Source: an uncultured Acidobacteriota bacterium
Lineage (GTDB): Bacteria; Acidobacteriota; JAQAZP01
Length of the DNA stretch: 64,000 nt
Direction: 5' to 3'
Assembly (NCBI GenBank): GCA_963836075.1
Contig: CAWIIB010000009.1
Location: forward strand, 2,080,001-2,144,000
Numbering within the stretch: position 1 is the first letter of the stretch; the number at the start of each line of letters is the position of its first letter. Shown in pieces: positions 26,977-51,675 of this stretch. The notes beneath the pieces are model-generated. The model saw nothing but the letters and a program-made list of their open reading frames with translations, did no database searches and was not told the DNA's origin. A program made the position numbers and the translations under genes.

Positions 26977-26996
26977 CGGTCTCCCGTCCGCTTCGG

Positions 26997-28022: not shown

Positions 28023-28249
28023 TCGCGGCAGTTCCCCGGTTCTCCACGGCATTGGTCGTCGCCGCCCTTCCGCCCTGGCTCGCAAGCCTTTTTATATCAT
28101 TGAGATGCCAAGATCGCACCGCAGCCTTTTCCCTGTGTGGACTATAGCCCGTAACAGTGGGCCAGTCAAACCGCCCTGGCCGGTACAGGCGGAGCGAAGG
28201 TGGACTGTCCTCTCCTTCTGCTACAATTGCGCAAGCAGTGGAGGAGTTG

Positions 28250-36352: not shown

Positions 36353-36713
36353 TCGGCCTTTCTCCTTTTTCTCCTCCACCGTACCGAAGCGTGCCCGAAC
36401 CGCCCGTTCCTTGTCGTGGGGTTGTGGGTAGCGGGTCAACTTTTGCCCGGGATCGTTCTGGTCCGATTAACCTGCATTATATCTATCTGTTAGTTGGAAG
36501 GCAAGGCGGGAAGAAAAAAGTTTGTGCCGCTTCGCGGGCGCCATTCCCCGAGTTCCCCGGGCTGTGATATCATTGTCCCCCCTACCCGGGCGTCCCGCGG
36601 GCGGTTCCGGGTGATTGTAAACACACAGCCCCCGGGGCCCGGATCGCCGGTCCGCCCATTGGTCGCGGCCGTTCCCGCCGAGTTCCAGGCAAACCATAGA
36701 AGAGCATCAGCGC

Positions 36714-38234
36714 GTGATTAACAAGAACGTCGATTTCATTTACCTCCACCCCTACCATGGCGACAACATCGAGGCCCACAAGATGTATTCCCTGATCCCG
36801 GTGGGTGCGGTGGCCATTGTCAACCACCTGCTGGACAGCGGATTGACCGGCCGGGGGCTCAACGTGCCCCTGGAGCTGCGCAAGGACGACGAGTTCGATC
36901 CCCGGCCCTGGATCGAGGCGCACCAGTTCTCAATCGCGCTGATCGACATCAACTGGTATCTGCACCTGGCCGGCGGCCTGGACCTTGCCGCCCTGGTCAA
37001 GGAGGTCCGGCCCGGGGCCACCGTACTGGTGGGCGGGCTCACCGCCACCCGGTTTGCCGATGAGATCCTCACCCGTTTCCCGGCGGTGGATGCCGTCTGC
37101 CGCGGGGACGGGGAAGTGCCGGCGCAGATGCTGGCCGAGAAATGTGCCGGCCGGGCGGAGCATCCCATGGAGGAGATCCCCAACATCGTCTGGCGCGGCG
37201 AGGATGGGATCCGGCACAATCCGCAGTCCTATGTGGACCGGGAGATGGATCGCTGGAATTACCGTGACCTGGGGTTCCTGGAGAGCGAAAAGGACTATTA
37301 CTACAACTCGATTCTCAAGTGGGCCGACCTGGCCACCCACTGGCTGGCCCTGGGCCGGGGGTGTCGCTTTGCCTGCTACCACTGCGACGGATCGAGCCAG
37401 GCCCAGAAAAAACTGTTCGGCCGGGCCGGGCTGATGGTCCGCGACCCGGAACTGGTGGCCCGGGACATCGAGATTCTGGCCGGGCGGGGCATCGAGAACG
37501 TCAGCTTCACCCACGACCTGGTGCACATCGGGGAGGACTACTGGCGCGCCCTCTTTGCCGCTGTGCGGTCCTCCGGCGTGCGGATCGGCGCCATGCAGCC
37601 GTTCTGGCAATCCCTGCCCAGCGAGGATTTTGCCCGGGAGTTTTCCGAGACCTTCGTGATGAAGAACTCCTATGTCAACGTCTCCATCGAGACCGCGGTG
37701 GAGGAGATGCGCCGGCACATCCACAACTGCACCTTTTACAGCAACGAGGAATTTTTCGAGGGGCTGCGGTTGCTCAAGCAGCACGGTGTTCCGATCATGG
37801 TCTACTTCCGGCTCAACGCGCCGTGGGAGTCGGCTCGCACCATGGAGGTGAATATCAAGTGTGCGGCGGAGGTCTTCCGCCTGTTCCCCGAAGACGTGCC
37901 GCCGATCTTTGTCAGCGACGTGCCGCTGGACCCCAGTTCGCCATACTCCCACGCCGCGGAGACTGCGGAGTCGCGTTTTTCCTTCAGTTTCCCCAAGCTG
38001 GGCTTCGATGACTACTACCAGTTCTCCCGGGGAATGATCCCGGCGGAGAAGGTGTTCGCCAGCCCCGGCGGGCCGGGAATCGAGATGAGGGACTACCACG
38101 AGTTCGATCACCTGGGCAAGCTCGACGTGCTCTTCGTCAAGAAGCTGGTCCCACGGATGTGGGGGCGCTGGGAAGAATTGATGCTCAGTGACGGCAAGAG
38201 CTGGGACGCCATCCGCAGCGGGGTGGTGGTATGA
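36714..38234 (+). CDS. Cobalamin-dependent radical SAM protein
   Basis: B12-binding-like region (LVGGLTAT, DAVCRGDGE) and GRGCRFACYHC. Confidence 0.88.
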   Translation: MINKNVDFIYLHPYHGDNIEAHKMYSLIPVGAVAIVNHLLDSGLTGRGLNVPLELRKDDEFDPRPWIEAHQFSIALIDINWYLHLAGGLDLAALVKEVRPGATVLVGGLTATRFADEILTRFPAVDAVCRGDGEVPAQMLAEKCAGRAEHPMEEIPNIVWRGEDGIRHNPQSYVDREMDRWNYRDLGFLESEKDYYYNSILKWADLATHWLALGRGCRFACYHCDGSSQAQKKLFGRAGLMVRDPELVARDIEILAGRGIENVSFTHDLVHIGEDYWRALFAAVRSSGVRIGAMQPFWQSLPSEDFAREFSETFVMKNSYVNVSIETAVEEMRRHIHNCTFYSNEEFFEGLRLLKQHGVPIMVYFRLNAPWESARTMEVNIKCAAEVFRLFPEDVPPIFVSDVPLDPSSPYSHAAETAESRFSFSFPKLGFDDYYQFSRGMIPAEKVFASPGGPGIEMRDYHEFDHLGKLDVLFVKKLVPRMWGRWEELMLSDGKSWDAIRSGVVV

Positions 38235-40390
38235 AAACCTATCTCGTGTTTCCGCCCCACTGGACGGCCACCGAACCGTACCTCAGCTGCCCCGCCCTCA
38301 CCGCGTTCCTGCGGGCGCACGGCCAGGAGGTCCGCCAGCAGGACGCCAACGTGGAGTTCTTCCGCTATCTGCTCTCCGAACCCTATCTGCGCCGGGCTCG
38401 CGACGAAGTGCAACATCGGTTCAGGCTTCTGGAGGCCAGGGACGAGCTGACTATCGAAGAGCAGGACCGCTACCAGGTCTACACCCAGGCGCTCCTCCCG
38501 GCGGACACCGCAGTGGAGAACATCGAGGGGAGTCTGGAGGACTATCGTGACCCGGAGAAATTTTTCAACCTCAACGATTACTACCGCGCAGGGCGGATCC
38601 ATTTCGCCGCTCTGAAGCTGGCTTCCGCGCTGTACCATCCCAGTTCGGTCACCTTCTCCGAATACAACAGCCGCTACCGCTACGCCAGCACCCGCGAGAT
38701 CCTCCAGGCGGTGGAGGACCGCGGAGAGAACATGTTCATCGAGTTCTTCGAGGAGCAGGTGGTGCCGAAGATCGAGGCCTACGGCCCGGGAATTCTCGGT
38801 CTGTCCATCAGTTCCCCGCACCAGATCATTCCGGCATTCACCCTGGCCTCCCTGGCCCGCAAGCGCATGCCTGGCCTGCACATCGTGGTGGGGGGCGGCT
38901 ACTACACCAGGATGCTCATCGATCCCCAGCGAATGGCGCCGTTGTTCGACCTGCTGGACAGCGTCGTGGTCTACGAGGGTGAAACCGCGTTGCTCCGACT
39001 GGCCGAGGAACTGGACGGCGGGGGCCGGCTGGACAGGGTGCCCAACCTGGTCTGGCGCGATGGTGGAGACGTGCGGGTCAACCAGCCGTTCCATCACGAA
39101 CGGGTCGACGAGCTGCCCACCCCCACCTTCGACGGGTTTCCGCTGGAGAAGTATCTGAACCACCAGGTGGTCATCCCCTATCTCACCTCCCGGGGCTGTT
39201 ACTGGGGCAAGTGCGCGTTCTGCACCAGCTTCGAGACATATAAGGGCGGTTACCGCCAGCGAAACATCGACCTGGTGCTGGAGGACCTGAAGACGCTCTC
39301 CACGGAGTGCGGATCGAACAGCTTTTTCTTTGTGGACCAGGCCACCTCCCCCGCATCCCTCCGGCGAATCTCCCAGGGGCTGATCGATTCCGGCGCCGAG
39401 TACCACTGGCAGACCGAGGCCCGCTTCGAACGCAAACTGGACCTTCCGCTACTCCGGCTGATGCACCGCTCCGGCTGCCGCAAGCTGCTCTTCGGCCTCG
39501 AGTCGGGGCACCAGCGGGTGCTTGACCTGATGGAGAAGGGGACCCGTCTGGAGGACACACGGCGTATTCTCGAGGACTGCCAGAAAGCCCATATCGGTAT
39601 CCACGTCTTTCTCATCTGCGGTTTCCCCACCGAGACCGTGGAGGAGGCGGACGCCAGCGTCGAGTTCATCCTCGGGGTGGAGGGTCTGACCTCATCTCCC
39701 GGTTTCACCTACCACGTGCACAACTTCGGTCTGGAGACCGATTCAAAGGTGGGAATGAACCCGGAGCGCTACGGGGTGACGCTGCAGCCGATGGAGGAGG
39801 ACCTGGACCAGTTCCTGCACTACATCGGCTACCAGGTGGAGCAAGGCATGCCCCCGGAAGCCCTGGAACACAAGGTGGCCGAGATGCGCGGCAGGATTCT
39901 CCAACGGGTGGCCTTCAAGGACTATCCGGTCCACGGGCCGCACAACCTGCTCTACCTGGCGCATTACGGGTGGGCGTTCCCCGAGCCATTGGAGAACGTG
40001 GCCCAGTTCAAGGACCTCCCGTTCCAGAAGCTCCTCGGTTTTGTTCCGGTGCTGGCCGACGAGGTGACGGTGAAGGAGTTCAAGTTCTACGTGCCCGAAG
40101 AGGAGGGGGTGCCGTCACCCCTCCCCGGCGGTGGTGAGGGGAGTGCCCCGGCGGAGCGGAAGCTGATCCATGTGGGCGGCCACTTCTACTGCTATATCGG
40201 CCGCACCGAGCGGAGCTGGCTGATCAGCCCCCGGGGCAAGACCCTTCTCGACCTCACCGACGGCACACGGACGGTGGAGCAGGTCTGTACCCTGTTCGAG
40301 CAGCAGCAGCCGTCCAAAACCGCATTCATCCAGGCCGCCGGGGACATGCGTGTCTTCTTCCAGCGCGGCGCCCTGACCGTCGCCGGTTAA
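38231..40390 (+). CDS. Cobalamin-dependent radical SAM protein with C-terminal RRE/PqqD-like domain
   Basis: HIVVGG, YEGE, SRGCYWGKCAFC, GLESG, GFPTET. C-terminal LLDLTDGTRTVEQV. ATGA-coupled to the previous gene. Confidence 0.88.
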   Translation: MKTYLVFPPHWTATEPYLSCPALTAFLRAHGQEVRQQDANVEFFRYLLSEPYLRRARDEVQHRFRLLEARDELTIEEQDRYQVYTQALLPADTAVENIEGSLEDYRDPEKFFNLNDYYRAGRIHFAALKLASALYHPSSVTFSEYNSRYRYASTREILQAVEDRGENMFIEFFEEQVVPKIEAYGPGILGLSISSPHQIIPAFTLASLARKRMPGLHIVVGGGYYTRMLIDPQRMAPLFDLLDSVVVYEGETALLRLAEELDGGGRLDRVPNLVWRDGGDVRVNQPFHHERVDELPTPTFDGFPLEKYLNHQVVIPYLTSRGCYWGKCAFCTSFETYKGGYRQRNIDLVLEDLKTLSTECGSNSFFFVDQATSPASLRRISQGLIDSGAEYHWQTEARFERKLDLPLLRLMHRSGCRKLLFGLESGHQRVLDLMEKGTRLEDTRRILEDCQKAHIGIHVFLICGFPTETVEEADASVEFILGVEGLTSSPGFTYHVHNFGLETDSKVGMNPERYGVTLQPMEEDLDQFLHYIGYQVEQGMPPEALEHKVAEMRGRILQRVAFKDYPVHGPHNLLYLAHYGWAFPEPLENVAQFKDLPFQKLLGFVPVLADEVTVKEFKFYVPEEEGVPSPLPGGGEGSAPAERKLIHVGGHFYCYIGRTERSWLISPRGKTLLDLTDGTRTVEQVCTLFEQQQPSKTAFIQAAGDMRVFFQRGALTVAG

Positions 40391-40437
40391 ACCAGAAGAG
40401 GACCCTCCTCTGCTCCAGTCCCGCCCGTGTGTATGTA

Positions 40438-40473
40438 CAAAAAAAGACCTCTTCACTGGGGGAGGAAGAGGTC
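40438..40473 (-). terminator. Intrinsic terminator downstream of the precursor genes, between convergent units
   Basis: GACCTCTTC/GAAGAGGTC perfect 9-bp stem, with an A-run on + (U-tract on -). Confidence 0.7.
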
Positions 40474-40665
40474 ATCTCTTAGCTAGCCAGATTTTTTAGC
40501 GATTGAAAAGAGGCGTTATCGTTTTAACGTGAATTTGAACAGCTTTCAACAGGAACAGGAACTCGCAGCTTTTCGCCTCTTGAGGGTATGGAAATTCAAA
40601 CCGCTCTTCGGGGATTGCGAAGTCTTGGCGAAATTTCAAATACCCGAATTTTACTCAAGCCATCC

Positions 40666-40932
40666 TTAGGAGGCGAGAGTTACCCAGTTGCCGCACAGGC
40701 CGGCGTACCAGTAAGACTGGGACGTTCCGCCAGGGCCGAAGCCGACGCCAGCCTGACCGGGGCTCACACTGGAGCTGGCACCAAAACCAGCACCAAGGTG
40801 ACCGGTGAAGGTGTCATAGGCGCTCGCCATGTGGTGAGAGCCAGCCGGAGGACTGGCAGTCTTACCACATGCCAGGGCCGAAGTCTCAAAGCTCTTCTCA
40901 GTGAAAATAGTGGGCTTGGAATACTTCTTCAA
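40666..40932 (-). CDS. Putative RiPP precursor peptide A3 (88 aa)
   Basis: TTG start with GGAGGAGGTG RBS. MKKYSKPTIFTEKSFETSALACGKT...YDTFTGH...GFGPGGTS...CGNWVTLAS. Paralog of the two upstream peptides. Confidence 0.88.
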   Translation of the reverse strand: MKKYSKPTIFTEKSFETSALACGKTASPPAGSHHMASAYDTFTGHLGAGFGASSSVSPGQAGVGFGPGGTSQSYWYAGLCGNWVTLAS

Positions 40933-41132
40933 TCTGTTTCACCTCCTCCCGTTTTGGAATCTCCCTCTCGGGTTAAACCCAAGGGTCTTTAATGCCGAAA
41001 CGAACAAAACCCCGCAGTGATCGATTCATGTGTCTATCAGTTAACCACTGCGTTCCGGCAAACTTTAAACTGCGTTACTTCCCTTGTTCGCCGTGGGGCC
41101 GGCCGCAACCGGATCACCGCACTGGCTGACCG

Positions 41133-41169
41133 AAAAACAACCCGAACATCGTCACATGCGGGGCTGCCC
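41133..41169 (-). terminator. Probable intrinsic terminator after precursor A2
   Basis: Minus strand GGGCAGCCCCGCAT-GTGACG-ATGTTCGGGTTGTTTTT: G-U-containing stem plus U-tract, just after the stop. Confidence 0.5.
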
Positions 41170-41182
41170 GATCATCGGTTGA

Positions 41183-41443
41183 TCAGGACGACATCTGAAC
41201 CCAGTTGCTGCACAGCCCGGCATAGTTGTAACTGCCGCTGGTGCCGCCGGGGCCGAAGCCCACGCCCGCGGAACCGCTGGCTGACTCTGTCCGGCCTGGT
41301 CCGAAGTGACCGGTAAAGGTGTCATACGCACTTGCGAAATGGCGCGAACCTGGATCGGCGGCGCTGGTCTTGCCGCAGGCCAGCGCTGATGTCTCAAAGG
41401 TCTGTTCCGTCTGGATAACCGGCTTGCCGTAAGGAAGTCTCAT
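41183..41443 (-). CDS. Putative RiPP precursor peptide A2 (86 aa)
   Basis: GGAGGTAATT-ATG. MRLPYGKPVIQTEQTFETSALACGKT...CSNWVQMSS. The supplied ORF 41183-41713 is over-extended. Confidence 0.88.
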   Translation of the reverse strand: MRLPYGKPVIQTEQTFETSALACGKTSAADPGSRHFASAYDTFTGHFGPGRTESASGSAGVGFGPGGTSGSYNYAGLCSNWVQMSS

Positions 41444-41513
41444 AATTACCTCCAGAGAACCGACCAGCCGGTTCAGGGTGTGCCCCCGATGTGGCCGGTT
41501 CACTTCGGAACAA

Positions 41514-41780
41514 TCAGGAACTGTAGGTGATCCAGTTGCCGCACATACCGCTGTAAACGTAACTGCCGCTGGTGCCGCCGGGGCCAAAGCCGATGCCGGC
41601 GCTGCCGCTGGCCGACTCGCTACCGCCGAAACCACCACCGAGGTGACCGGTGAAGGTGTCATAGGGAGCACCCATGTGCCAGGATCCCGGAGGGGGATCA
41701 GTGGTCTTGCCACAGGCCAGTGCGGAAGTTTCGAAACTCTTCTCGGTCGCGATCCTCGGCTTCTTGTAATCTCTCTTCAT
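41514..41780 (-). CDS. Putative RiPP precursor peptide A1 (88 aa)
   Basis: AAGGAGGTTGTGTA-ATG. MKRDYKKPRIATEKSFETSALACGKT...CGNWITYSS. Confidence 0.88.
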   Translation of the reverse strand: MKRDYKKPRIATEKSFETSALACGKTTDPPPGSWHMGAPYDTFTGHLGGGFGGSESASGSAGIGFGPGGTSGSYVYSGMCGNWITYSS

Positions 41781-42029
41781 TACACAACCTCCTTTGATAT
41801 AAAGAGTTTTGGTATTGTTTGCCATTACACCTGGAAGGCAATTGGCGCTCTTTATATCATAGGGTCCCTGATGTGTCAAGTTCCTTCGCAGGACTTAGAT
41901 ACGGCTAACCAGCTTGCTCTCGGCGGCCTGAAAATCGGTGGACCGCCGGGATGGTCCGCGTCAATACTGGGAACCTGATTTCAACCCGTTGAGAAACCCC
42001 TGTTGCCGCAGCAACAACGTCAGTTAATC

Positions 42030-42046
42030 TGCACGATTTGTGCCAA
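42030..42046 (-). promoter_or_regulatory. Sigma-54-type promoter upstream of the precursor array
   Basis: Minus strand TTGGCACAAATCGTGCA with exact GG-N10-GC spacing, 250 nt upstream of A1. Confidence 0.6.
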
Positions 42047-42346
42047 TTGCCGGGGTATTGTCCGGTGTCTTATCGTCGTGCTCGTAATTCATTATGGTGG
42101 AAGGAAATAGTTCCCTGATCCAGGGCTGGTGGGCCGCCGGCATTGTGTCGGATCGCCCGTACGCTGCTCTGATCAAGGAATCGAATTGCCTACAGTCGGA
42201 AAACTATTACTCTTGGCAATCCCTTGCCTTTTTGGTTGGTTTGTTTATTTTTTGGCCGTCTATCAGCGATGCCGCGCCGGCTCCGGTGCGGTGAGGGGGA
42301 CTGAAGTCAAAAATGCGTGCCTCGAAGAAAGGTGCGGGGTGGCGAT

Positions 42347-42895
42347 TCAGTTCCGGAGCAGCGCGCCGAGAACGTAGACCGGACCGCAGAACAGGTAACG
42401 GATCACCGGCCGGGCCATGCGGTTCGGTCCCGCGGGGAGGCGGGCCGCCAGAGCCAGCAGGGGGCAGGCCAGGCGGCAGCTGAGGGCGGAGGCGCTGGCC
42501 ATGATCCGGCTGCGGACGCCGCGTCCGAGGGCTACGTCCCGCCCCTGGCGGCTGGTGGAGGCGACTCTGCCGAGAAGCGTATCCGCAGAGTGTGGCGGGT
42601 CGTAGTGGGGCAGGGTATCGCCGCTGGTCAGCATCAGCCGTTGGCCGTCCGCTGCGTTCTGCCAGCCGAGAAACCGGTGGCCGATGAAGCGACCGTCCCG
42701 GGTGGCGAAGAAGAGGATGTCTCCCGCCCGGGCCTGTTCTGCCTCCAGCGGTTCGATCCGGATCATCTCCCCGTGGCGCACAACCGGCATCATGCTTCCG
42801 CCAAAGGCGCGGAAGGTGAACGATCCATGACCGTCCAGCGTCTCCCGGATCATTCCGGCAGTGACGGTCCTGTGCTGCGGGCCGGGTCTGCTCAT
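42347..42895 (-). CDS. S24/S26 family (signal peptidase-like) peptidase
   Basis: GGSMMP catalytic Ser motif, GDILFF, HR (Ser-His type), SGD. Confidence 0.8.
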   Translation of the reverse strand: MSRPGPQHRTVTAGMIRETLDGHGSFTFRAFGGSMMPVVRHGEMIRIEPLEAEQARAGDILFFATRDGRFIGHRFLGWQNAADGQRLMLTSGDTLPHYDPPHSADTLLGRVASTSRQGRDVALGRGVRSRIMASASALSCRLACPLLALAARLPAGPNRMARPVIRYLFCGPVYVLGALLRN

Positions 42896-42911
42896 TGGGG
42901 GCCGCCGGCGT

Positions 42912-44027
42912 TCAGGTTTCGATGTCGTCGATATCAGAGGCCGGACGCTTCTCCTGGACCAACCGGCGCATCTTGGAGGTCCGGCAGGCGAAGGAGGACG
43001 GCCCGAAAGCGTCGCCGTCTTCCAGCAGGGCCACTCCCGGGCAACGGAAGCAGATCGGCAGCAGGGAACACTCGCTGCACTTCTCCACGTCGGCCATGGT
43101 GGTCTGCCGTATTTTTTTCAGCACCGGCGAGTTCTCCCAGATCTCACTGAACGGAGTTTCACGCAGGTTTCCGGCGCTCATCTGAAACTGGATGCAGGGG
43201 AACACGTTTCCGTAGGGGTCGATGCTCAGGAAGTTGGTGCCCGCCTTGCACATGTAGGTCTCCCTGGTCATCTGGGCGCCTTCGCTGTATTCCCGGGTCC
43301 CGAAGGTGAGCAGTCCCTGGTTGAACTTCTCGTCGCTGAGGATGCGGTGCAGGTCCTCGTCGCTGATCCGGTTGCCGCAGGGGCGTGATGAGCCGTCGAT
43401 TCCCGGGGCGATCAAGGGATCGATGGTGTATTTCACGTCCAGGCGGTCTCCGAGGGTCTTGATCAGGTCGAACTCCCCCACGTTGTCTTTCATCAGCGTG
43501 CACTTGAGGTTGACCTTCAGCCCCCGCGCCTTGAGCATCATGATCGCGGCGATGGTCTTCTTGAACGACCCGGGGAGCTGGGTGATCCGGTCATGGGTTT
43601 CCGCCGTGGCGCCATAGACCGAAATACCCATCTCCCACGGGGCCACCGACTTGATCCGGTCGGCCAGTTGCTCGTCGATCATCGTGGCGTTGGTCAGCAG
43701 GTTGATGGCGAAATGCAGGCTCCTGGCATGCTCGAGGATCTCCCAGATATCGCGGCGGAGAAAGATCTCACCGCCGGTGATCGAGAGGTGCAGCGTGCCC
43801 GCCTGGGCCAGCTGGTCGAGAATGGTGCGGATTTCGTCGGTGGTCAGTTCCTGCTTCACCTTCTCCTTCGAGGGGTGGTCGAGGTAGCAGTGCAGGCACT
43901 TTTCGTTACAGCGGTGGGTCAACTCCAGGATGACGCTGTACGGGATCAGCTTCTGGTGTGAGACGCTGCTGATCTTGCTCAGCACCGAGGGCTGGAACAG
44001 CTGCTCGGGGGGCGTGTTGTCGGACAT
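42912..44027 (-). CDS. Radical SAM/SPASM domain peptide maturase
   Basis: ELTHRCNEKCLHCY, TGGE. SPASM CKAG...YGNVFPC...GNL...CSECSLLPICFRCPG...C. GGAGG RBS. Confidence 0.92.
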   Translation of the reverse strand: MSDNTPPEQLFQPSVLSKISSVSHQKLIPYSVILELTHRCNEKCLHCYLDHPSKEKVKQELTTDEIRTILDQLAQAGTLHLSITGGEIFLRRDIWEILEHARSLHFAINLLTNATMIDEQLADRIKSVAPWEMGISVYGATAETHDRITQLPGSFKKTIAAIMMLKARGLKVNLKCTLMKDNVGEFDLIKTLGDRLDVKYTIDPLIAPGIDGSSRPCGNRISDEDLHRILSDEKFNQGLLTFGTREYSEGAQMTRETYMCKAGTNFLSIDPYGNVFPCIQFQMSAGNLRETPFSEIWENSPVLKKIRQTTMADVEKCSECSLLPICFRCPGVALLEDGDAFGPSSFACRTSKMRRLVQEKRPASDIDDIET

Positions 44028-44177
44028 CTGGCGGGCCTCCCTGGGGATACGTGCGGCACGCGGATGCGTGCGGAAGGCCCTGCCGGCATCACGGCCGTAG
44101 ACGCCGCCACGGCCGGATTCTTGCCGGCCCGGGCGGGGCCTGTCCACGATTCCGGCGGGGCGTTCCGGCTCGGGGGA

Positions 44178-44453
44178 TCAGGAAAGGGTGACCAGGCTCT
44201 TTTCCTTCTGCATCAGTTCTTCGATGAATTCCACCACGTCTTTTTCCGCGGTTTCCCGGTCCACTTCGAACTCCGAGACCACCTGGTCGACAATCTCGCT
44301 CACTGTCTTCTCGCCGTCGCACAGCTCCCAGATCCTGGTGCCCACCGCGTCCAGCGAATGGACCGAACTGTCTTCAGCGGAGAGGAGGACCGCCTCGTCT
44401 CCAATAATACGCCAGGCGACGTTTTCGTCTCGGGTCACTTTCTTATCCAGCAT
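44178..44453 (-). CDS. PqqD family RiPP recognition element (RRE)
   Basis: SLDAVGTRIWELCDGEKTVSEIV...FEVDRETAEKDVVEFIEEL. Confidence 0.92.
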   Translation of the reverse strand: MLDKKVTRDENVAWRIIGDEAVLLSAEDSSVHSLDAVGTRIWELCDGEKTVSEIVDQVVSEFEVDRETAEKDVVEFIEELMQKEKSLVTLS

Positions 44454-45255
44454 TTTCGATGCACCTCCATACAGACTCGTCGGGCTTGAAATGCAATTCC
44501 GCCGACGGGATCTGCGTCATGAAATCGGTGAAAACGGAAAGGAGTTCGTTGGTCAACTCGAGACCGCGGCCGAAAAACAGCACGTTTTGCAGAATCTGCG
44601 TCATTTTAACGCCCATGGGGATCTGGTCGATCCGGTTTTCCCTCGCCTTGCGCAGGAAGAAGAGGTGAGAAACCGGTGCCGATTCCCGGGCCGTCCCTTT
44701 CTGGAAGTCGCCCCAGAACGGGTTGCCGTGGACGACATATTCTCCGTTTTCCTTGAGCACGGCGGTCAGTTCGTCGCTCAGCAGTCTGTTTTCGGGCGAC
44801 AGGCCGCTGATCGTGCTTTTCCCCGACCCCGAGGAGCCGGTGAAGATGTAGCCCCTCCCCTTGTGAACAACCGAACTGGCGTGGAGCATGAATCCGCCCC
44901 GCTTGAGCATCAGCCAGGTGTAGAAAACCCGATAGAACGCGTCAAAGGAATAGATCGACTCGTGCACCTCCAGGGCCCCCTGGTTTCCGGCAATGCTGAA
45001 CACTCCCGTGAAATCGCTCCGGTTCATGTTCAGCCGCTCGTCCTCCAGGGTGAGAACGGGCTGCTCGCCGAGGCGGCTCTCCCTCGCCGACTCACCCGTC
45101 TCGGCGTCGAACGTGGTGACCCGGTAGGTGTACAGCGGCTGGTCGTCGGTGATGAAACTCTCGTAGCGGTCCCGCAACACCTCGGACAGCGTTGGGGAAT
45201 CCACCTCGAACCGGGTGGCGATGTCGGCGATGGTGATGGTGATCGACGTGTCCAT
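44443..45255 (-). CDS. HprK-related P-loop kinase (ScmC-like, RiPP-cluster associated)
   Basis: LHASSV, GSSGSGKST, LLSDE and PFWG motifs. Real start is ATG 45255 inside the over-extended ORF. Stop overlaps the PqqD start. Confidence 0.82.
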   Translation of the reverse strand: MDTSITITIADIATRFEVDSPTLSEVLRDRYESFITDDQPLYTYRVTTFDAETGESARESRLGEQPVLTLEDERLNMNRSDFTGVFSIAGNQGALEVHESIYSFDAFYRVFYTWLMLKRGGFMLHASSVVHKGRGYIFTGSSGSGKSTISGLSPENRLLSDELTAVLKENGEYVVHGNPFWGDFQKGTARESAPVSHLFFLRKARENRIDQIPMGVKMTQILQNVLFFGRGLELTNELLSVFTDFMTQIPSAELHFKPDESVWRCIENAG

Positions 45256-45357
45256 GATCTGGTTCCTGCACCCGGGAAATACGGCCCGCGGCGCCGCTGT
45301 GCGGGTCGGGCCGCCGCCTTTTCCGATTGTGTCGCCAACCCCTGCGAAAGGGCAATA

Positions 45358-45386
45358 GATATAGCAAAGGGCCCTTGTCTTGTCAA
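45358..45386 (-). promoter_or_regulatory. Sigma-70 promoter for the kinase-PqqD-rSAM-peptidase operon
   Basis: Minus strand TTGACA-N17-TATATC with TG extension. Confidence 0.6.
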
Positions 45387-45419
45387 TAAAGCGATGACAG
45401 TTCCACCGGAGCCGGCCCG

Positions 45420-45449
45420 TTGACCCCTGGCGGCAAAAGTTGCTACCAT
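45420..45449 (+). promoter_or_regulatory. Divergent sigma-70 promoter for the methyltransferase
   Basis: TTGACC-N18-TACCAT with TG extension. Confidence 0.4.
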
Positions 45450-45528
45450 GCTCCGCTTTCCGGCGCGAAGCCCTCCCCGGTGGACGTTGGGCGCCGGTCG
45501 GCTGAACCTGATCGCTCTGGTGTTCACA

Positions 45529-46659
45529 GTGGACCTGTCTCTCCTCAAACTGATTCGTTGTCCGGCGGACACCGGCGGCCGTGCCTGCCATTCCCCGCTG
45601 GGCATCGACCGTCCGGCCGCCGAACCGGTCTTCTTCCCCGGAGGGGATCAGGACCTGGCGCAAGGGGTGTTGCGCTGCGACGGCTGCGGTGCCCGCTACC
45701 CGGTGATCTGCGGGGTGCCGGTGCTGCTGCGGGGTGTGGAGGCCTGGATCAGCGGGAACTACTGGTTCCTCCTCGGTTTTGCCGGGGAGATGGGCGCTCC
45801 GGTGACAAGCACCGCGGACTTTCTCCGGGAGACAGCTTCCCGGGACGGCGGGATGCCGCCCCGCCAGCTCTATGACCGTCGATGGTCCACCCGGGTGGCC
45901 AAGTTCGTCAGTAGCTACCTGATCAGCCACCACCTGGGTCTGGAGCGTCTGGAGTTGCTGGGACCGGCCCAGCGCCGGCTGGCCATGGAGATGGCCGTTG
46001 AGGGTGGTCCCCACGAGGTGCTCCAGGGCATGCTGGACGACCTGGAGACGCCCGGCGACACCACCGGGCCGGCCCTGGATGTGGGGTGCAGCGTGGGCGG
46101 CATGACGGCCCGATTGGCCGTTGGGGACCGGCTGGCGGTGGGGGCCGATATCAGTTTCGAGAGCCTGGTCTGGGCCCGGGCGCTGCTCAGGGGGCGGCCC
46201 GGCCCGCGTAACCTGGCGCCGGTGTTCACCGAGGGGGACAACCGGGTGGAGGTGCCGCTGGCTCCCCCGCAAGACAGCCGCTGCGAGTTCGTGCTGGCCG
46301 GCGGCGAGGCGCTCCCCTTCACCGACGGCTCTTTCGGGGTGGTCGCCAGCTGCAACCTGGTCGATGTGATCGACAAGCCGTCGGAACTGCTGGACGAGAA
46401 GAGCCGGTTGCTGGGGCCCGGCGGCGTGCTGCTCGTCTCCTCGCCCTTCCTGCATACCGCTGCGGGAGTTGGCCGCTGTCTCGCCCCCGAGGGCCGGCAG
46501 CCGACGGCTGTGTTGCGGACCATGCTCGAGGAACGGGGTTTCGAAGTGGCGGCCGAGCAGGAGGATGTGCCGTGGGTGCTCTATCACTACCGCCGCCGGC
46601 TCGATTTCTATCAGACGTTTTGTCTGGCCGCCCGCCGATGCGCGGCGGCTGAAGAGTGA
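45529..46659 (+). CDS. Class I SAM-dependent methyltransferase with N-terminal Trm112-like Zn-knuckle
   Basis: MDLSLLKLIRCP...LRCDGCGARYPVICGVPVLL, ALDVGCSVGG, ALPFTDGSF. Confidence 0.8.
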   Translation: MDLSLLKLIRCPADTGGRACHSPLGIDRPAAEPVFFPGGDQDLAQGVLRCDGCGARYPVICGVPVLLRGVEAWISGNYWFLLGFAGEMGAPVTSTADFLRETASRDGGMPPRQLYDRRWSTRVAKFVSSYLISHHLGLERLELLGPAQRRLAMEMAVEGGPHEVLQGMLDDLETPGDTTGPALDVGCSVGGMTARLAVGDRLAVGADISFESLVWARALLRGRPGPRNLAPVFTEGDNRVEVPLAPPQDSRCEFVLAGGEALPFTDGSFGVVASCNLVDVIDKPSELLDEKSRLLGPGGVLLVSSPFLHTAAGVGRCLAPEGRQPTAVLRTMLEERGFEVAAEQEDVPWVLYHYRRRLDFYQTFCLAARRCAAAEE

Positions 46660-46668
46660 GGCAGGTCT

Positions 46669-47808
46669 ATGGTCCATGTCTATCGGGCGGCAGTCTACCT
46701 GGTCATGATCGTCGCGGCGCTGCTGTTCTATCTGCTGCTGCGCCGGCTGTTCGGCAAGCGCACCCGGGTCTTCCCGCTGGTGGCGGCGCTGCTGGCGGTC
46801 ACAGGTTTGCTCTGGTGTACGCACTTTGCGCTCTCCAAACCGGCGTTGCTGCAGAAATACGCGCCGGTCCTGAAAATCAGGAAGCAGGGGGCGAAGATGA
46901 ACATGGTCTATATGGAGTCGGAGGTCCGGATCTGCAACCCCGACGGATCGGGGGACATCCTGTTCCTGCCCCAGGATTTCATCACCACCCGGGACATCAC
47001 CTGGTCGCCCGACGGCACCAGGATCATCTGCAGCCGTGTGGGGGACAGCCACGAGGGGATGAACCTCTGGCTCTACGATGCCAATGGTGAAAACCCGGTC
47101 CCGCTCACCTCGGGTCCGGGGATTGCCCGCCGGCCCAGCTGGTCGCCCGACAGCACCAGGATCGTCTTCGACTTCCGCCCCGGCTTGCGCCAGCTGGCCA
47201 CCGATATCTGCGTGATCAATGCCGACGGCAGCGGCCGGCAACTGCTGCTGGCCGGCAGCCGGACCCACGCCTATCATCCGGTCTGGTCACCGGACGGCAC
47301 GTCCATCTACTGCTGTGTGAAGGACGGGCGCCGCGATGACATCTGGGTCATGGATGCCGACGGCGGAAACCTGCGCCAGCTCACCTTCACCGCCGACCAG
47401 TCGGAGACCGAACTGGCGGTATCCCCCGACGGCAGCACCATCGTGTTTTCATTAAACCGCCGGGAGATGTACCTGATGGACGCCGACGGAAGCCATGTCC
47501 GCCCCTTGACCGCCGGGGACGGCAAGACCTGCCGGGGCCGGGACCCCAGCTGGAGCCCGGACGGCCAGCGGATCCTCTACGCCGGATTCGGGGCCAAGAA
47601 TTCCAGACGGTTCATCAAGGAGATCGGCAGGGACGGCAGCGGGCTGCGGCAGATCCCGGTGCAGGACGGCAAACTGCTCACCCCGGTGATGACGCCTGAC
47701 GGGTCGCGCCTGACCTACCTGCGGTTCGTCAAGACGGTGGTGCGCAAGGTCACACCCAGAAGGAACCCGGTGGCCGGGCCGGGGCTGCCGGCGGGAGAAG
47801 GGCGCTGA
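46669..47808 (+). CDS. Membrane-anchored TolB-like PD40 beta-propeller protein
   Basis: Two N-terminal TM segments and repeated (P)xWSPDG motifs. Confidence 0.85.
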   Translation: MVHVYRAAVYLVMIVAALLFYLLLRRLFGKRTRVFPLVAALLAVTGLLWCTHFALSKPALLQKYAPVLKIRKQGAKMNMVYMESEVRICNPDGSGDILFLPQDFITTRDITWSPDGTRIICSRVGDSHEGMNLWLYDANGENPVPLTSGPGIARRPSWSPDSTRIVFDFRPGLRQLATDICVINADGSGRQLLLAGSRTHAYHPVWSPDGTSIYCCVKDGRRDDIWVMDADGGNLRQLTFTADQSETELAVSPDGSTIVFSLNRREMYLMDADGSHVRPLTAGDGKTCRGRDPSWSPDGQRILYAGFGAKNSRRFIKEIGRDGSGLRQIPVQDGKLLTPVMTPDGSRLTYLRFVKTVVRKVTPRRNPVAGPGLPAGEGR

Positions 47809-47814
47809 CCGGGG

Positions 47815-49203
47815 TCAGGACGACCTGGCCTTGAGCTTGAGACGCTTGATCATTTCGCTGAGGGTGGTGGGTTTGACCTGCAGCAGCTGGGCCGCCGACT
47901 TCTGCACACCGTTGGACAGGGAGAGGGCGCGGAGGATCAGAGCCTTCTCGAATTCCTCCACGGTCTTCTTCAGCGAGAGCCCGCCGTCGGGGATGATAAT
48001 CTCCTCCGCCGAGGGAATGGCCGGATTGCGGATGTGACCGGGGATCAGGTCGAGGTCGATTTCATCCGTCTTGCACAGAACCACTGCCCGCTCCACCGTG
48101 TTCTCCAGCTCGCGCACGTTTCCCGGCCAGTGGTAGCCTTCCAGCACACCCAGCGCCTCCCGGGTGAAGCCGGCCACACTCTTGCTGTTCTCCTCATTGT
48201 AAGTGCGGAGAAAGTGCATTGCCAGCAGCGGGATGTCCGAGGCGCGCTGGCGCAGCGGGGGCAGGGAAATGGTGATCACGTTGAGCCGGTAGTAAAGGTC
48301 TTCGCGGAATTCCTTTTTCTGCACCGCCTCTTCGAGATTGGAGTTGGTGGCGGCGATGATCCTGGTGTCGACGCGGATCGAGTCCACTCCGCCCAGGGCC
48401 ATGAACTCCCGTTCCTGGATCACCCGCAGGATCTTGGCCTGGGTTTCCGAACTCAGGTTTCCCACCTCGTCGAAGAAGATGGTCCCACGGTCCGCCAGCT
48501 CGAAGAGGCCCTTTTTGGTGTTGATCGCGCCGGTGAACGCCCCCTTCACGTGTCCGAAGAGATTGCTCTCCAGCAGGTCCGCCGGCATGCTGCCGCTGTT
48601 CACCACGATGAACGGCTGTCCGGAGCGGGGGCTGTTCATATGGATCGCCTTGGCGATCAACTCCTTGCCCGTTCCGCTCTCCCCCTGGATCAGCATCGTC
48701 GAGCGGCTCGGTGCCGCCTGGGAGATCAGGTCGAAGATCTCCTTCATCTCCGTGCTCTGGCCGATGATGTTGGAAAAACCGTATCTGTCGGAGAGGGCCC
48801 GCTTGAGGTTGCGGTTCTCCTGGGTCAGCCGCCGGTGCTCCACCCCCTTGCCGATGGTCAGCAGCACCTCCTCGTTCTTGAACGGTTTGGCGATGTAATC
48901 GAAGGCACCGTTTTTCATTGCTTCGATGGCGCTCTCCACCGAGGCGTAGGCGGTGATCATGATCACCACCTGGTGCGGGTCGTCCTGTCTGATGGACTGC
49001 AGCGCTTCCAGCCCGCTCATCCCAGGGAGCATGATGTCGCAGAGGATGACGTCGAAGTCGGTTTCGCCCAGCTGGCGCAGCCCGTCTTCAGCCGTGCCGG
49101 CGCATTCCACCTCGTAGCCGCGGCGCCGGAGCAGGCGGACCAGCACATCCTGCATCACCTCTTCGTCGTCGATGACGAGGACCCTGGCCCGCTCCTTATC
49201 CAT
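47815..49203 (-). CDS. Sigma-54-dependent NtrC-family response regulator
   Basis: Receiver domain (DDE, CDIMLPG), GESGTGKE, GAFTGA, FREDLYYRLNV, WPGNVRELEN, Fis-type HTH. Confidence 0.95.
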   Translation of the reverse strand: MDKERARVLVIDDEEVMQDVLVRLLRRRGYEVECAGTAEDGLRQLGETDFDVILCDIMLPGMSGLEALQSIRQDDPHQVVIMITAYASVESAIEAMKNGAFDYIAKPFKNEEVLLTIGKGVEHRRLTQENRNLKRALSDRYGFSNIIGQSTEMKEIFDLISQAAPSRSTMLIQGESGTGKELIAKAIHMNSPRSGQPFIVVNSGSMPADLLESNLFGHVKGAFTGAINTKKGLFELADRGTIFFDEVGNLSSETQAKILRVIQEREFMALGGVDSIRVDTRIIAATNSNLEEAVQKKEFREDLYYRLNVITISLPPLRQRASDIPLLAMHFLRTYNEENSKSVAGFTREALGVLEGYHWPGNVRELENTVERAVVLCKTDEIDLDLIPGHIRNPAIPSAEEIIIPDGGLSLKKTVEEFEKALILRALSLSNGVQKSAAQLLQVKPTTLSEMIKRLKLKARSS

Positions 49204-49251
49204 CCTGTCGCTCTCGATTGTGGCGCCGGAGCCTCAGGAGCCGGTGCCGTT

Positions 49252-51675
49252 TTACGTTGGTGGTGAAGAGCTGCCGCTCCCTCGGGGCAGGGTCACGGTG
49301 AACACCGTTCCGGCGCCAGGCCGACTGTCGACGGAAATGTCACCCTGATGCTCACGAATTATACCATAGCAGATCGAGAGCCCCAGGCCGGTGCCGGCCC
49401 CGGGGGGCCTGGTGGTGAAGAAGGGTTCGAAGATGCGCCGGCGGACATCCTCGGGGATTCCATGGCCGCTGTCCGAAACCGTCACGCAGGCTTTTGACCC
49501 GGCGGTCCGGGTGGCAACGCTCAGCAGCCCGCCCTCCGGCATGGCCTCCAGAGCGTTGCTCATCAGGTTGATCAGCACCTGCTGCAGTTGTCCGGCGTCG
49601 CCGGTCACCTCCAGCGGCTCGGCTGAAAGTTCCAGACGGAAATCGACGGTGGTCCCTTTCAGCAGGTGCTCGAAGAGGGACACCGCCTGACTGGTCACCT
49701 GGTTCAGGTCGGCGGCTACCATGGTGCCGCCCTGCTTGCGCGCGAACTGCAGCAGGGAGGAGACAATATTTTCCGCCCGTTCCGCCTGCAGGCCGATTTT
49801 TTTCAGCATCTCCACCTGCTCCGTTTCGCTGGCATCGGCGGCCACGTTTTCCAGCAGCATTTCGGTGTAACTGGAGATGCCGGTGAGCGGCGTATTGATC
49901 TCGTGCGCCACTCCGGCAGCCAGCTGACCGATGGAGGCCAGCCGCTGCTGCTCCATCAGCCGGTTGGTCAGGGTGCTGTTCTCCAGGGCCATGGCCAGCA
50001 GTTCGGCGGCGGGCCGCAGCGCCTCCAGGTCCTCGCTGGAGAGCAGGGCCCCGCCCCTGCGCGGCCCCATACCGATTGCGCCCAGGCATTGGCCGCCGCC
50101 GGCCCCGGTCATGATCAGCAGCTGGTAACAGCCTTTCCAGGGGGAGGACAGTTGCACCACGCGGCAGCGCCCGTTTCCTGCCCCCTTGCCGATCCCGGTC
50201 TGTTGCCGGGGATCGGGCTGCCGCGCCTGGTCGGGGATTTCGGCGGCGGGGACGAAACGCATGGAGTCAATCTCCATGGCCCGGGCGACGTCGTCCATGA
50301 ACATCTCCACCAGTCGCTCCGGCGGGAGGGCGGGGTCGAGGCGGAAGGGATCGAAATCAGCCAGTCGTTCCCGGTGGTCCATGCGGTCCCCGAAGTGCAG
50401 ACGGTCCGCTGACCGGGCCAGCGAGTCCCTGATTCGAGGGAAGAAGATGGCGGAGATGGTCACCGCGGTCACCGCCCAGAAAATCATGCCGACCGGCCGG
50501 CGGGGATCGGAGAGGGCGGGCACCCAGCGGGAGGCGGCGGACAGGGCCAGAATCACGGTGAAAAGGGTTGCCGCCGAGGAGAGCGAGTAGACCATCGACT
50601 TTTTGAAAACCAGCGGGGCGTCGGCCAGCCGGTAGCGCATCACTGCGACGCTGAAGGCGGCGGGGATCAGTACCAGGGTGAGCAGTGACATGGCCTGCCA
50701 GTCCGCGGGGTAGGAGCCGGCCAGGTAGGGCAGGAAAAAGAGGACCAGCGGCGGCGTTCCTCCCAGCACGGTGCCCAGAGAAATCCAGAGCAGTTGCTGC
50801 CGCTGCACGGGATTGCGGGCCCGGGTGGTGCGCACAGCGGCCACCAGGCCGCCCAGCAGCAGGGCGGCGCCCAGCCAGCCAAGGCTCAGCCTGCGCAGCA
50901 CGGCATACATGGTGGTGGTGGTGTAGGGGTTGCCGGGGCGGGCCAGCAGCCCGAGGTTCCAGGCGACGTAGAGCAGGGCCAGACCGCAGGAAACGGCGAT
51001 GCCCGCGGTGATCACCAGGCGCCGGTGCCACGCTCCCGGGGCGGGAAACCAGATGCAGAACCCCAGAAAGAGCGCCGGTAGGAGCAGGGTGCCGGCATCG
51101 TCGAGGGCGTTGACCAGCAGATCGAAGTTGTCCCAGATGCCGATGGGGGAGAGGAGGGTCAACCCGGCGAAAGAGAAGCAGATGCCGGCCAACAGGAGGC
51201 TCTCCCGGGGCCGGCGGCCGAAGATCCCCACCATGGCGCCGAGGAACAGCGCCGCTGTCCCGGCCAGGACGAGGACAGCGTACAGAAACGTGCCGTCCGG
51301 CTGGCGCACCACCCGCACCACGCGGTTGATCTGACGGCCTTGCCGCAGCATCGTGTAGATGCTCTCCGCGGCCGGCCCTGATGATGCCAGCGCCTGGCCG
51401 TATTCCACCGTCGTACCCACCGGGAGTCCGTTGATTGCGGTGACGATGTCGCCGGTCCTGATGCCGGCCTGCTGTGCCGGGCTGGAGGTGCGAATGCCGA
51501 TGACCTGCAGACCGGCAACAGTGTCGCGGACGGCCAGGCCATCCTGGGGGACATCAACCGCCCACTTGCGCCAGACATTGAATCCGCCGAGGACCAGCAG
51601 TACCAGGAGCAGTAACAGGGTCCAGGTGATCCCGGTCTGCCGGTTCCGCTCTTTCCTGGTTCCACTGCCGATCAC
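49252..51675 (-). CDS. Sensor histidine kinase with extracytoplasmic PDZ domain and multi-TM region
   Basis: [19 protein letters not shown] (PDZ), [12 protein letters not shown]-box, [28 protein letters not shown]. Confidence 0.92.

Follow-up and report, generated by a model that had tools for sequence, protein, structure and literature searches.

A Probable Maturation Center of an Uncharacterized RiPP Family in the Phylum Acidobacteriota

A 64,000-nucleotide stretch of the genome of an uncultured Acidobacteriota bacterium (assembly GCA_963836075.1, contig CAWIIB010000009.1, positions 2,080,001 to 2,144,000), hereafter the window, carries at positions 36714–46659 a gene cluster that is probably the maturation center of an uncharacterized family of peptides that are made by ribosomes and modified after translation (RiPPs). 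The cluster unites three paralogous peptide genes with a four-gene cassette, which encodes an HprK-like P-loop protein, a stand-alone RiPP recognition element (RRE) of the PqqD family, a radical S-adenosylmethionine (SAM)/SPASM enzyme, and an S26-type serine peptidase. Two genes of B12-binding radical SAM enzymes (B12-rSAMs) converge on the peptide genes, and a SAM methyltransferase gene lies divergently to the kinase operon (Table 1). This arrangement had been noticed in an initial annotation made from the sequence alone; the listing of open reading frames (ORFs) and the family scans (Pfam and NCBIfam, over the ORFs at 25.8–58.4 kb of the window) confirmed the cluster, with the same gene order and strands, including the coupling of the two B12-rSAM genes, which overlap by 4 nt. 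The comparisons described below support the view that a large RiPP class without a name extends across the Acidobacteriota, usually with a much shorter precursor, and that the cluster represents an elaborated branch of it. The proposal of the initial annotation that the RRE, the SPASM enzyme, and the HprK-like kinase form the center of an uncharacterized RiPP system is supported by a shared leader, by homologous cassettes, and by the finding of no named family beyond the generic PqqD.

Precursor Peptides of the Cluster

Each of the three peptide genes is preceded by a GGAGG-type ribosome-binding site. Their products, described in the initial annotation as three paralogous peptides of 86–88 aa, are related as claimed, peptides B and C being 68–71% identical to peptide A, and none of the three matched a Pfam or NCBIfam model. 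A profile of the three peptides retrieved 315 proteins at E ≤ 0.01 from a 5.8-billion-protein collection (counted, like the short peptides below, as clusters at 90% identity), and none of these proteins was named or contained a Pfam domain. Among the best 120 of them, Y4, P7, C22, and C80 were invariant, and conservation extended over the whole length. The place two positions after the leader Pro was occupied by I, V, or L in 116 of these 120 peptides, the last Cys was followed by eight residues in 108, and the last residue was Ser in 106, Thr in 10, and Cys in 4. The leader, common to the three peptides and at least seven further intact copies in the genome, reads Y-x-K-P-x-I, then two Glu, and then an invariant Ala, which sits three residues ahead of an invariant Cys-x-Lys. 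With its invariant Tyr and Pro, the leader motif of the long family appears to conform to the lasso-peptide consensus YxxPxL. No signal peptide or hydrophobic segment was read from the sequences of the peptides.

The initial annotation spoke of three precursors. This number is right for the locus but not for the genome, over which at least 10 intact copies are dispersed. The host genome (6.2 Mb, 95% complete; the window sits on a contig of 3.5 Mb) yielded 16 peptide matches, 10 with the full intact leader and the remainder partial, most of them far from any maturase. In contrast to these 10 intact copies, the cassette is single-copy: tblastn found no second PqqD gene at E ≤ 1e-5, and for the SPASM, S26, and HprK genes only distant paralogs (≤39% identity). 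The median dN/dS among the 10 paralogs was 0.19 (25 of the 45 pairs had unsaturated dS), and the paralogs are old and under purifying selection. The 315 relatives, this dN/dS value, and the RNA-library contigs described below indicate that the peptide genes are not chance ORFs.

When the long-peptide profile was run against 401 genomes of the phylum, full-length matches were obtained only in the host genus. A search of the ESM Atlas yielded nothing beyond the unnamed cluster to which the peptide itself belongs, whose taxa are Acidobacteriota, and two leads below 0.9, and an exact-pattern scan of public contigs found the long family in three records only.

Several variants of the long family were also observed. 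A precursor 88% identical to peptide A is encoded on a 2907-bp contig of a metagenome-assembled genome titled “PVC group bacterium” (L010), which may reflect either a binning error or a transfer. Six long-family precursor genes lie in tandem on one metagenome contig (L066:9995-11750), and tblastn matched no cluster enzymes within 10 kb of them. A second, diverged HprK-like gene (286 aa, without a Pfam match) is located divergently beside a variant long precursor at G000:C8:136077-137317 (L094:7078-8318); the tail of this precursor ends in Gly-Gly-Gly-Thr rather than in the usual Ser. Places related to this pairing are L075, L016, L078, and L079, and the same pairing was found on a metagenome contig.

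A Shared Leader and a Family of Short Precursors

Residues 1–30 of the long-peptide profile gave weak matches in ten further genomes of the 401. The places matched encode peptides of about 38–40 aa, some with an extended N-terminus, which carry the head Y-x-K-P-x-(I/F) ... E..E.xA..C-x-K, have a second Cys 6–9 residues on, and end in Ser. Homologs of the S26 peptidase and of the HprK-like, PqqD, and SPASM proteins adjoin these short peptides at 27–41% identity (loci L084-L089). The first ~25 residues of the long peptides match a family of short peptides of about 38–60 aa that comprises 4012 clusters at E ≤ 0.01, none of them named and none with a Pfam domain; the short precursors matched no NCBIfam model either.

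All of the best 120 short peptides ended in Ser, contained exactly two Cys after the Y..P motif, 6–9 residues apart, and had Ala at −3 and Lys at +2 of the first Cys, and 119 had seven residues past the second Cys; the search profile encodes most of these features, but not the end of the protein at Ser. Among the short peptides read from genomes, 23 of 25 ended in Ser, and both exceptions came from one genome that is 78% complete. The residue before the first Cys was Ala, Ser, or Thr in 101 of the best 120. Acidic residues often lie between the two Cys, but in one short subfamily Asp and Glu are missing altogether past the first Cys.

By comparison, the long peptides look like short ones with about 55–57 conserved, Gly-rich residues inserted between the two Cys. 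As judged from the alignments, the signature of the class is a lasso-like YxKPxI leader, two Cys, a Lys two positions after the first Cys, and a C-terminal Ser. Since the same leader and cassette serve a core of 16 residues and one of about 65, the system would be useful for the study of RiPP enzymes that act on protein-sized substrates. An all-versus-all comparison of the small ORFs of nine loci, made for other precursor types, was dominated by G+C-rich low-complexity matches.

Larger proteins were seen next to some of the short precursors. A protein of about 1500 aa with gingipain-type Peptidase_C25 and fn3 domains adjoins short-subfamily precursors at L084:4740-9245 and L089:7066-11565, and an ORF of 1438 aa occupies the matching position at L088:5577-9893. 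In the subfamily with the “FETMAL” leader, a protein of about 610–630 aa without a Pfam match follows the SPASM gene (L085:13030-14859 and L086:5170-7065).

Distribution of the Cassette and Its Co-occurrence With Precursors

A profile of the HprK-like protein matched in 134 of the 401 genomes, and a precursor was matched in 83. Both were present in 82 genomes, the precursor alone in 1, the HprK-like protein alone in 52, and neither in 266; these are plain counts of relatives that are not independent of one another, and they include the unpublished genome G151, without which each count containing it falls by one. Of the 83 genomes with a precursor, 40 had their best precursor match within 4 kb of a listed HprK match, and 60 had it within 20 kb. 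The search for homologous clusters that the initial annotation had suggested, made here with the precursor profile, recovered leader-sharing peptides beside homologous cassettes.

The HprK, PqqD, and SPASM genes were side by side in 27 of the 29 best non-self HprK loci, and 13 also had an S26 gene within 3.8 kb. When 20 HprK loci were widened by 4 kb and searched with a hidden Markov model of the leader, precursors at E ≤ 1e-6 were found in 10; for most of the other ten, a precursor was located 11–17 kb off on the same contig. The cassette is spread over many families of the phylum. The whole arrangement of the cluster is kept within the genus and on metagenome contigs (L009/L044, L019/L082, L047, and L056/L057), where the precursors are 62–95% and the cassette proteins 69–99% identical to those of the window; the PqqD protein reaches 96–99% in L082 and L056.

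In a subfamily without an S26 gene next to the kinase, the precursor lies 10–17 kb from the HprK-PqqD-SPASM triad on the same contig (genomes G321, G223, G347, G038, G104, G213, G395, G339, G001, G283, G263, G355, and G162), which suggests much larger clusters.

Enzymes of the Four-Gene Cassette

The only curated NCBIfam cutoff passed by any protein of the cluster was that of the PqqD model TIGR03859, a marginal result (48.1 bits vs. 46) that concerns the domain only. The best NCBIfam match of the PqqD protein was the lasso PqqD chaperone, which scored 57.6 bits against a cutoff of 80. In the sequence of the SPASM enzyme, a CxxxCxxC motif and seven C-terminal Cys were read. Its nearest solved structures were those of PqqE (3.5e-15) and SkfB (6e-13), and entries of SuiB, YydG, and CteB were also matched; all of these enzymes modify peptides. 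The named models remained under their cutoffs, namely PqqE (109.8 bits vs. 381.35), MftC (133.3 vs. 265), StsB (132 vs. 625), AlbA (88 vs. 850), and PapB (66 vs. 340).

A P-loop of the form G-x-S-x-x-GK-x-T, a His, and an LxDE motif with an invariant D190 are conserved in seven cassette homologs of the HprK-like protein, and this alignment contains the Walker A motif and the downstream acidic motif of the HprK/PEPCK-like P-loop superfamily. A PDB sequence search with the same protein matched only the P-loop region of PEPCK (7.8e-5). The scores were 46.3 bits for ScmC (cutoff 125) and 25.9 and 34.9 bits for the HprK-related A/B models TIGR04352 and TIGR04355 (cutoff 200). For a distant cassette kinase, ScmC was the best named match as well, with 43.7 bits against 125.

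The S26 peptidase scored 37.2 bits with TIGR02228 (cutoff 51.85) and 21.7 bits with SipW (cutoff 190). Its SMxP, HR, and GD motifs and a further Asp are invariant in 10 cassette homologs, which we take to be the Ser/His arrangement of the Sec11/SipW-type signal peptidases. The 33 residues ahead of the catalytic Ser are not hydrophobic, i.e., the enzyme lacks an N-terminal membrane anchor and is therefore probably cytoplasmic. In the precursors, the invariant Ala at −3 of the first Cys and the residue at −1, which is small in most cases, agree with the small-x-small rule known for signal peptidases; a cut after A19 (T/A-x-A), or after L20 by lasso spacing, would be equally compatible.

Transcription of the Precursor Genes

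An index search found RNA libraries that contain parts of positions 40400–44200. Contigs from four metatranscriptome runs of three studies, X11 and X16 (sediment), X19 (salt marsh), and X17, were compared with positions 36500–46800. Contigs with 0–2 mismatches tile positions 40494–41820, spanning all three peptide genes and the 3′ end towards a hairpin, and the contigs for precursor A had 0–1 mismatches. The flanking enzyme genes (36500–40283 and 42004–46800) had next to no contig cover in the four runs, which says nothing on their expression but makes DNA carry-over a less likely source of the peptide-gene contigs. Such contigs record presence in a library, not transcript levels, transcript ends, or a ranking of genes, and it is in this sense that they are evidence for transcription of the precursor genes in the environment.

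The hairpin downstream of the last peptide gene (Table 1) folds better than expected by chance, since none of 200 shuffles folded as well. The terminator scan passed over it because its loop is longer than 8 nt. The promoter scan listed no site; its rule wants T at the end of the second hexamer, and the TATAAA found upstream of precursor C ends in A.

B12-Dependent Radical SAM Enzymes and the Methyltransferase

The B12-rSAM pair and the methyltransferase are best described as branch-specific additions, and their membership in the system is less certain than that of the four-gene cassette, although we consider it likely. B12-rSAM 1 had TIGR04190 as its best NCBIfam match (182 bits, cutoff 500), whereas the best family of B12-rSAM 2 was TIGR03975, the RiPP maturation rSAM C-methyltransferase (127.1 bits, cutoff 281.85). 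The C-terminal ~60 residues of B12-rSAM 2 may form an RRE-like domain, but the alignment with PqqD (hhalign probability 45%, E 2e-4, 32 columns) is a weak match and only a hint of this.

The pair was found beside the peptides in every long-family main locus recovered (L043, L056, L057, and L073), with B12-rSAM 1 at 85–92% identity. The methyltransferase keeps its position in L056, L082, and L019 at 67–79% identity. At another place in the genome, which contains dozens of B12-rSAM paralogs, two orphan precursor copies are followed directly by the gene of a third B12-rSAM (759 aa). Near residue 325 of B12-rSAM 2, a Cys-x4-Cys-x2-Cys motif was observed instead of the canonical Cys-x3-Cys-x2-Cys.

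Proposed Maturation Pathway

By analogy with known systems, a pathway can be proposed in which the leader is bound, the peptide is crosslinked, phosphorylated on Ser, freed of its leader by the S26 enzyme, and methylated. The PqqD protein would bind the leader, as lasso B1 proteins bind YxxPxL, and would present the peptide to the SPASM enzyme, by which the core would be crosslinked, most likely through a thioether from one or both of the invariant Cys. It would also present the peptide to the HprK-like kinase, and the hydroxyl of the conserved C-terminal Ser (or Thr) would be phosphorylated, as in paeninodin-type lasso clusters. The anchorless Sec11/SipW-type peptidase may remove the leader at the small-x-small site just ahead of the first Cys. 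The two B12-rSAMs (with the third one beside the orphan copies) and the methyltransferase, gained in the host genus, probably methylate the inserted ~55–57 residues.

Phosphorylated lasso peptides provide the closest precedent for the kinase step. According to passages of PMC8498205, the HPr-kinase homologs of lasso clusters phosphorylate the C-terminal Ser at its side-chain hydroxyl and act on the linear precursor with little regard for the rest of the peptide. Passages of PMC10368454 place the lasso leader motif YxxPxL at −17 to −12 and describe the acceleration of the kinase by the B1 RRE in the Bsf lasso system. For the present cluster, we infer phosphorylation of the C-terminus as the most economical reading because the leader is lasso-like, the PqqD gene overlaps the kinase gene (by 11 nt), and the C-terminal Ser is nearly universal.

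Comparison With Known Systems

With the phosphorylated lasso systems (paeninodin, Bsf) the cluster shares the YxxPx(L/I) leader, a stand-alone PqqD RRE next to an HprK-like kinase, and the terminal Ser. However, a B2 protease and a lasso cyclase are lacking, and a SPASM enzyme and an S26 peptidase are found instead; moreover, the core is defined by two invariant Cys and a Lys rather than by a ring of the Gly1/Asp8 type. The SynChlorMet (Scm) and HprK-related A/B cassettes likewise combine HprK-like, PqqD-like, and radical SAM/SPASM proteins. Unlike Scm, the cluster has one SPASM enzyme, not two, and an added S26 peptidase, and the Scm models scored far under their cutoffs (ScmD, 42.7 bits vs. 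100; ScmE, 115.5 vs. 400; ScmF, 86.7 vs. 400). The Scm and HprK-related A/B families are bioinformatic, and we know of no characterized product of either.

Sactipeptides and ranthipeptides (SkfB, AlbA, PapB, StsB) likewise have precursors that contain Cys and a SPASM enzyme that is guided by an RRE and has seven Cys in its C-terminal domain, and the cluster has both a SPASM domain (4e-12) and a core with two invariant Cys. It differs from them in that the RRE is a separate protein and the cassette includes a kinase and an S26 peptidase, and its thioether is only presumed. Proteusins of the polytheonamide type resemble the cluster in the long core of about 65 residues, the two B12-rSAMs, and the SAM methyltransferase, whereas the cluster lacks an NHLP or Nif11 leader and a PoyD-type epimerase, its TIGR03975 score is under the cutoff, and its leader is lasso-like. 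That no NHLP or Nif11 leader is present had been stated in the initial annotation, in agreement with the lack of any NCBIfam or Pfam match of the precursors. The same holds for its statement on the lasso cyclase, YcaO, and Lan enzymes, none of which was found among the ORFs scanned. The pathways of pyrroloquinoline quinone (PQQ) and mycofactocin also apply a PqqD-family chaperone and a SPASM enzyme to a small peptide, and PqqE is the nearest solved structure; the cluster, in contrast, has many diverged precursors with a different signature, an added kinase and peptidase, and scores under the PqqE and MftC cutoffs.

No description of the class was found in the full-text literature, with subscription journals and supplementary files outside the scope of the search. 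Term searches returned no mention of kinases or of a signal peptidase in the text covered of two papers on RREs (PMC7470986 and PMC12710340).

Alternative Explanations

A number of observations weigh against the interpretation of the locus as a RiPP maturation center that works as proposed. No modification was observed, and every chemical step is drawn by analogy. The assignment of the kinase draws on weak similarity, namely on HprK-type matches far under their cutoffs and the PEPCK P-loop match. One characterized lasso kinase targets Ser3 and not the C-terminus (passages of PMC10368454), and homology therefore does not settle which residue is the target. The residue before the first Cys was Arg, Gln, Lys, Val, Asn, or Leu in 19 of the best 120 short peptides, which leaves the exact cleavage site uncertain; the cut could come after A19, L20, or A21. 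The residue counts of both families come from the best 120 matches, and such top matches lean towards the search profile. The whole core is conserved and not the leader alone, which is unusual for antibiotic RiPPs. Neither a transporter or exporter nor an immunity gene was found among the ORFs scanned. The synteny of the B12-rSAM and methyltransferase genes was observed only among close relatives (77–92% identity), and these enzymes had no match at E ≤ 1e-2 in the short-family cassettes examined.

The last two points bear on the possibility that the system is limited to the peptides and the four-gene cassette, with the B12-rSAM pair and the methyltransferase as mere neighbors that act on something else. 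Such an explanation would also agree with the separate transcription units of these genes, one convergent and one divergent, with the many B12-rSAM paralogs of the genome, and with the weakness of the RRE-like match in B12-rSAM 2. The conserved places of the pair and of the methyltransferase speak against it, but weakly, as only close relatives are concerned; further objections are the third B12-rSAM directly after two orphan precursor copies and the RiPP C-methyltransferase model as the best family match of B12-rSAM 2. On balance, we regard this explanation as unlikely, although it deserves serious attention. A less probable alternative is that the product is a conserved functional molecule, for example a redox cofactor, a metal-binding compound, or a signal, comparable to PQQ or mycofactocin and not of the antibiotic type. 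The strong conservation of core as well as leader in both families, the presence of the cassette across many families of the phylum, the relationship to PqqE, and the place of the MftC model among the better matches would suit this role, and metal could be bound by the pair of invariant Cys, which often enclose acidic residues. Nevertheless, a cofactor precursor would hardly be expected in 10 or more diverged copies per genome, as found here, or in tandem arrays of up to six (L066), the PqqE and MftC scores are far under the cutoffs (110 vs. 381 and 133 vs. 265 bits), and a partner oxidoreductase was not seen in the flanks. This alternative concerns the role of the product, and it implies the same maturation mechanism as the preferred explanation.

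The whole-length conservation without a hypervariable core, the many dispersed copies, and a length of 88 aa, which is long for a RiPP precursor, could also suggest ordinary, unmodified small proteins, secreted or structural, that happen to be encoded near unrelated enzymes. This is very improbable, and we rejected it: the leader is common to short peptides located within 20 kb of a cassette kinase in 60 of 83 genomes, the operon contains a dedicated peptide-binding PqqD domain, and the peptides have no signal peptide, hydrophobic segment, or Pfam match. We give even less credence to a variant lasso system with the protease and cyclase encoded elsewhere. It is true that YxKPxI resembles YxxPxL, that the lasso chaperone is the best match of the PqqD protein, and that an HPr-kinase homolog together with a C-terminal Ser is typical of phosphorylated lasso peptides (passages of PMC8498205). 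However, neither a transglutaminase-type B2 protease nor an Asn-synthetase-type cyclase was present among the ORFs scanned in the window or among the cassette ORFs of other loci matched to window proteins. Instead, 27 of 29 loci keep a SPASM gene together with those of the kinase and the RRE, and in 13 of them the S26 gene lies within 3.8 kb. The lasso PqqD cutoff was missed (57.6 vs. 80 bits), the short subfamily without an acidic residue after the first Cys could not close a lactam, and where lasso peptides have an acidic residue at core position 7–9, the long family has a single Asp-bearing column between C22 and G31, with Asp in 46% of the best 120. The lasso reading was rejected on the lack of protease and cyclase in the ORFs scanned, the presence of the SPASM and S26 enzymes in their stead, and the missed cutoff.

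Implications

Taken together, the precursor signature and the four-gene cassette define a large RiPP class that lacks annotation, in terms that are concrete and can be tested. Acidobacteriota abound in soils and sediments, yet to our knowledge their peptide natural products are almost unexplored. We know of no characterized system in which a SPASM enzyme guided by an RRE occurs together with an HprK-like kinase and a leader protease of the signal-peptidase type, nor, although no search was aimed at this point, of any characterized RiPP in which a relative of signal peptidases serves as leader peptidase; this combination of enzymes offers a route to new peptide chemistry. A far-reaching version of the preferred explanation, which we put forward tentatively and hold to be somewhat doubtful, is that the cassette defines a new RiPP class, present across the phylum and transcribed in the environment, of which every member bears a crosslink involving the two Cys and the Lys and a phosphorylated C-terminal Ser, with the leader cut by a cytoplasmic relative of signal peptidase, and that the 88-aa version of the genus is a multi-copy, crosslinked, B12-dependently methylated mini-protein. 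If this were true, the conservation of the 88-aa peptide over its whole length would point to a conserved, non-antibiotic role in sediment Acidobacteriota.

Gene Features and Neighboring Genes

Table 1. Features of the cluster with their positions in the window.
Feature	Position	Strand	Evidence
B12-binding radical SAM enzyme 1, 506 aa, canonical CxxxCxxC	36714-38234	+	Pfam Radical_SAM 8e-11, B12-binding 5e-5
B12-binding radical SAM enzyme 2, 719 aa	38231-40390	+	Radical_SAM 1e-12; TIGR03975 7e-37, under cutoff
Intrinsic-terminator hairpin and U-run, downstream of last peptide gene	40439-40473	-	-17.9 kcal/mol, z -5.3
Precursor peptide A, 88 aa, TTG start behind GGAGGAGG	40666-40932	-	
Precursor peptide B, 86 aa	41183-41443	-	
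Precursor peptide C, 88 aa	41514-41780	-	
Promoter-like TTGACA-17 nt-TATAAA, upstream of precursor C	41851-41879	-	Read from sequence
S26B (Sec11/SipW)-type serine peptidase, putative leader peptidase	42347-42895	-	TIGR02228, Peptidase_S24 1e-3
Radical SAM/SPASM peptide maturase, 371 aa from likely start	42912-44027	-	Radical_SAM 6e-22, SPASM 4e-12
Stand-alone PqqD-family RRE, 91 aa	44178-44453	-	Pfam PqqD 1e-21
HprK/PEPCK-like P-loop protein, 269 aa, putative peptide kinase	44443-45252	-	Homolog alignment, P-loop
Class I SAM methyltransferase, N-terminal Trm112-type zinc ribbon	45448-46659	+	Methyltransf_11 3e-12, Trm112p 2e-4

The G+C content of the window is high (57–71%), and the longest ORF of the kinase gene (944 aa) was rejected as an artifact of it, as the alignment of homologs puts the start at the ATG at 45252. 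The longest ORF of the SPASM gene extends up to 44147; the start at 44027 is more likely, since it matches the starts of the homologs.

Genes that flank the cluster encode a TlpA-like thioredoxin, an HU/IHF protein, a PD40 beta-propeller, and an NtrC-type regulator adjoining a kinase. About 10 kb upstream of the cluster, at 25825–28085 on the minus strand, a second radical SAM/SPASM gene (383 aa) adjoins a gene of a family-2 glycosyltransferase, and its product is only 28% identical to the SPASM enzyme of the cluster. Just past the methyltransferase gene, positions 46669–51675 encode a membrane-anchored PD40 beta-propeller, a sigma-54-type (NtrC) response regulator, and a large sensor kinase.

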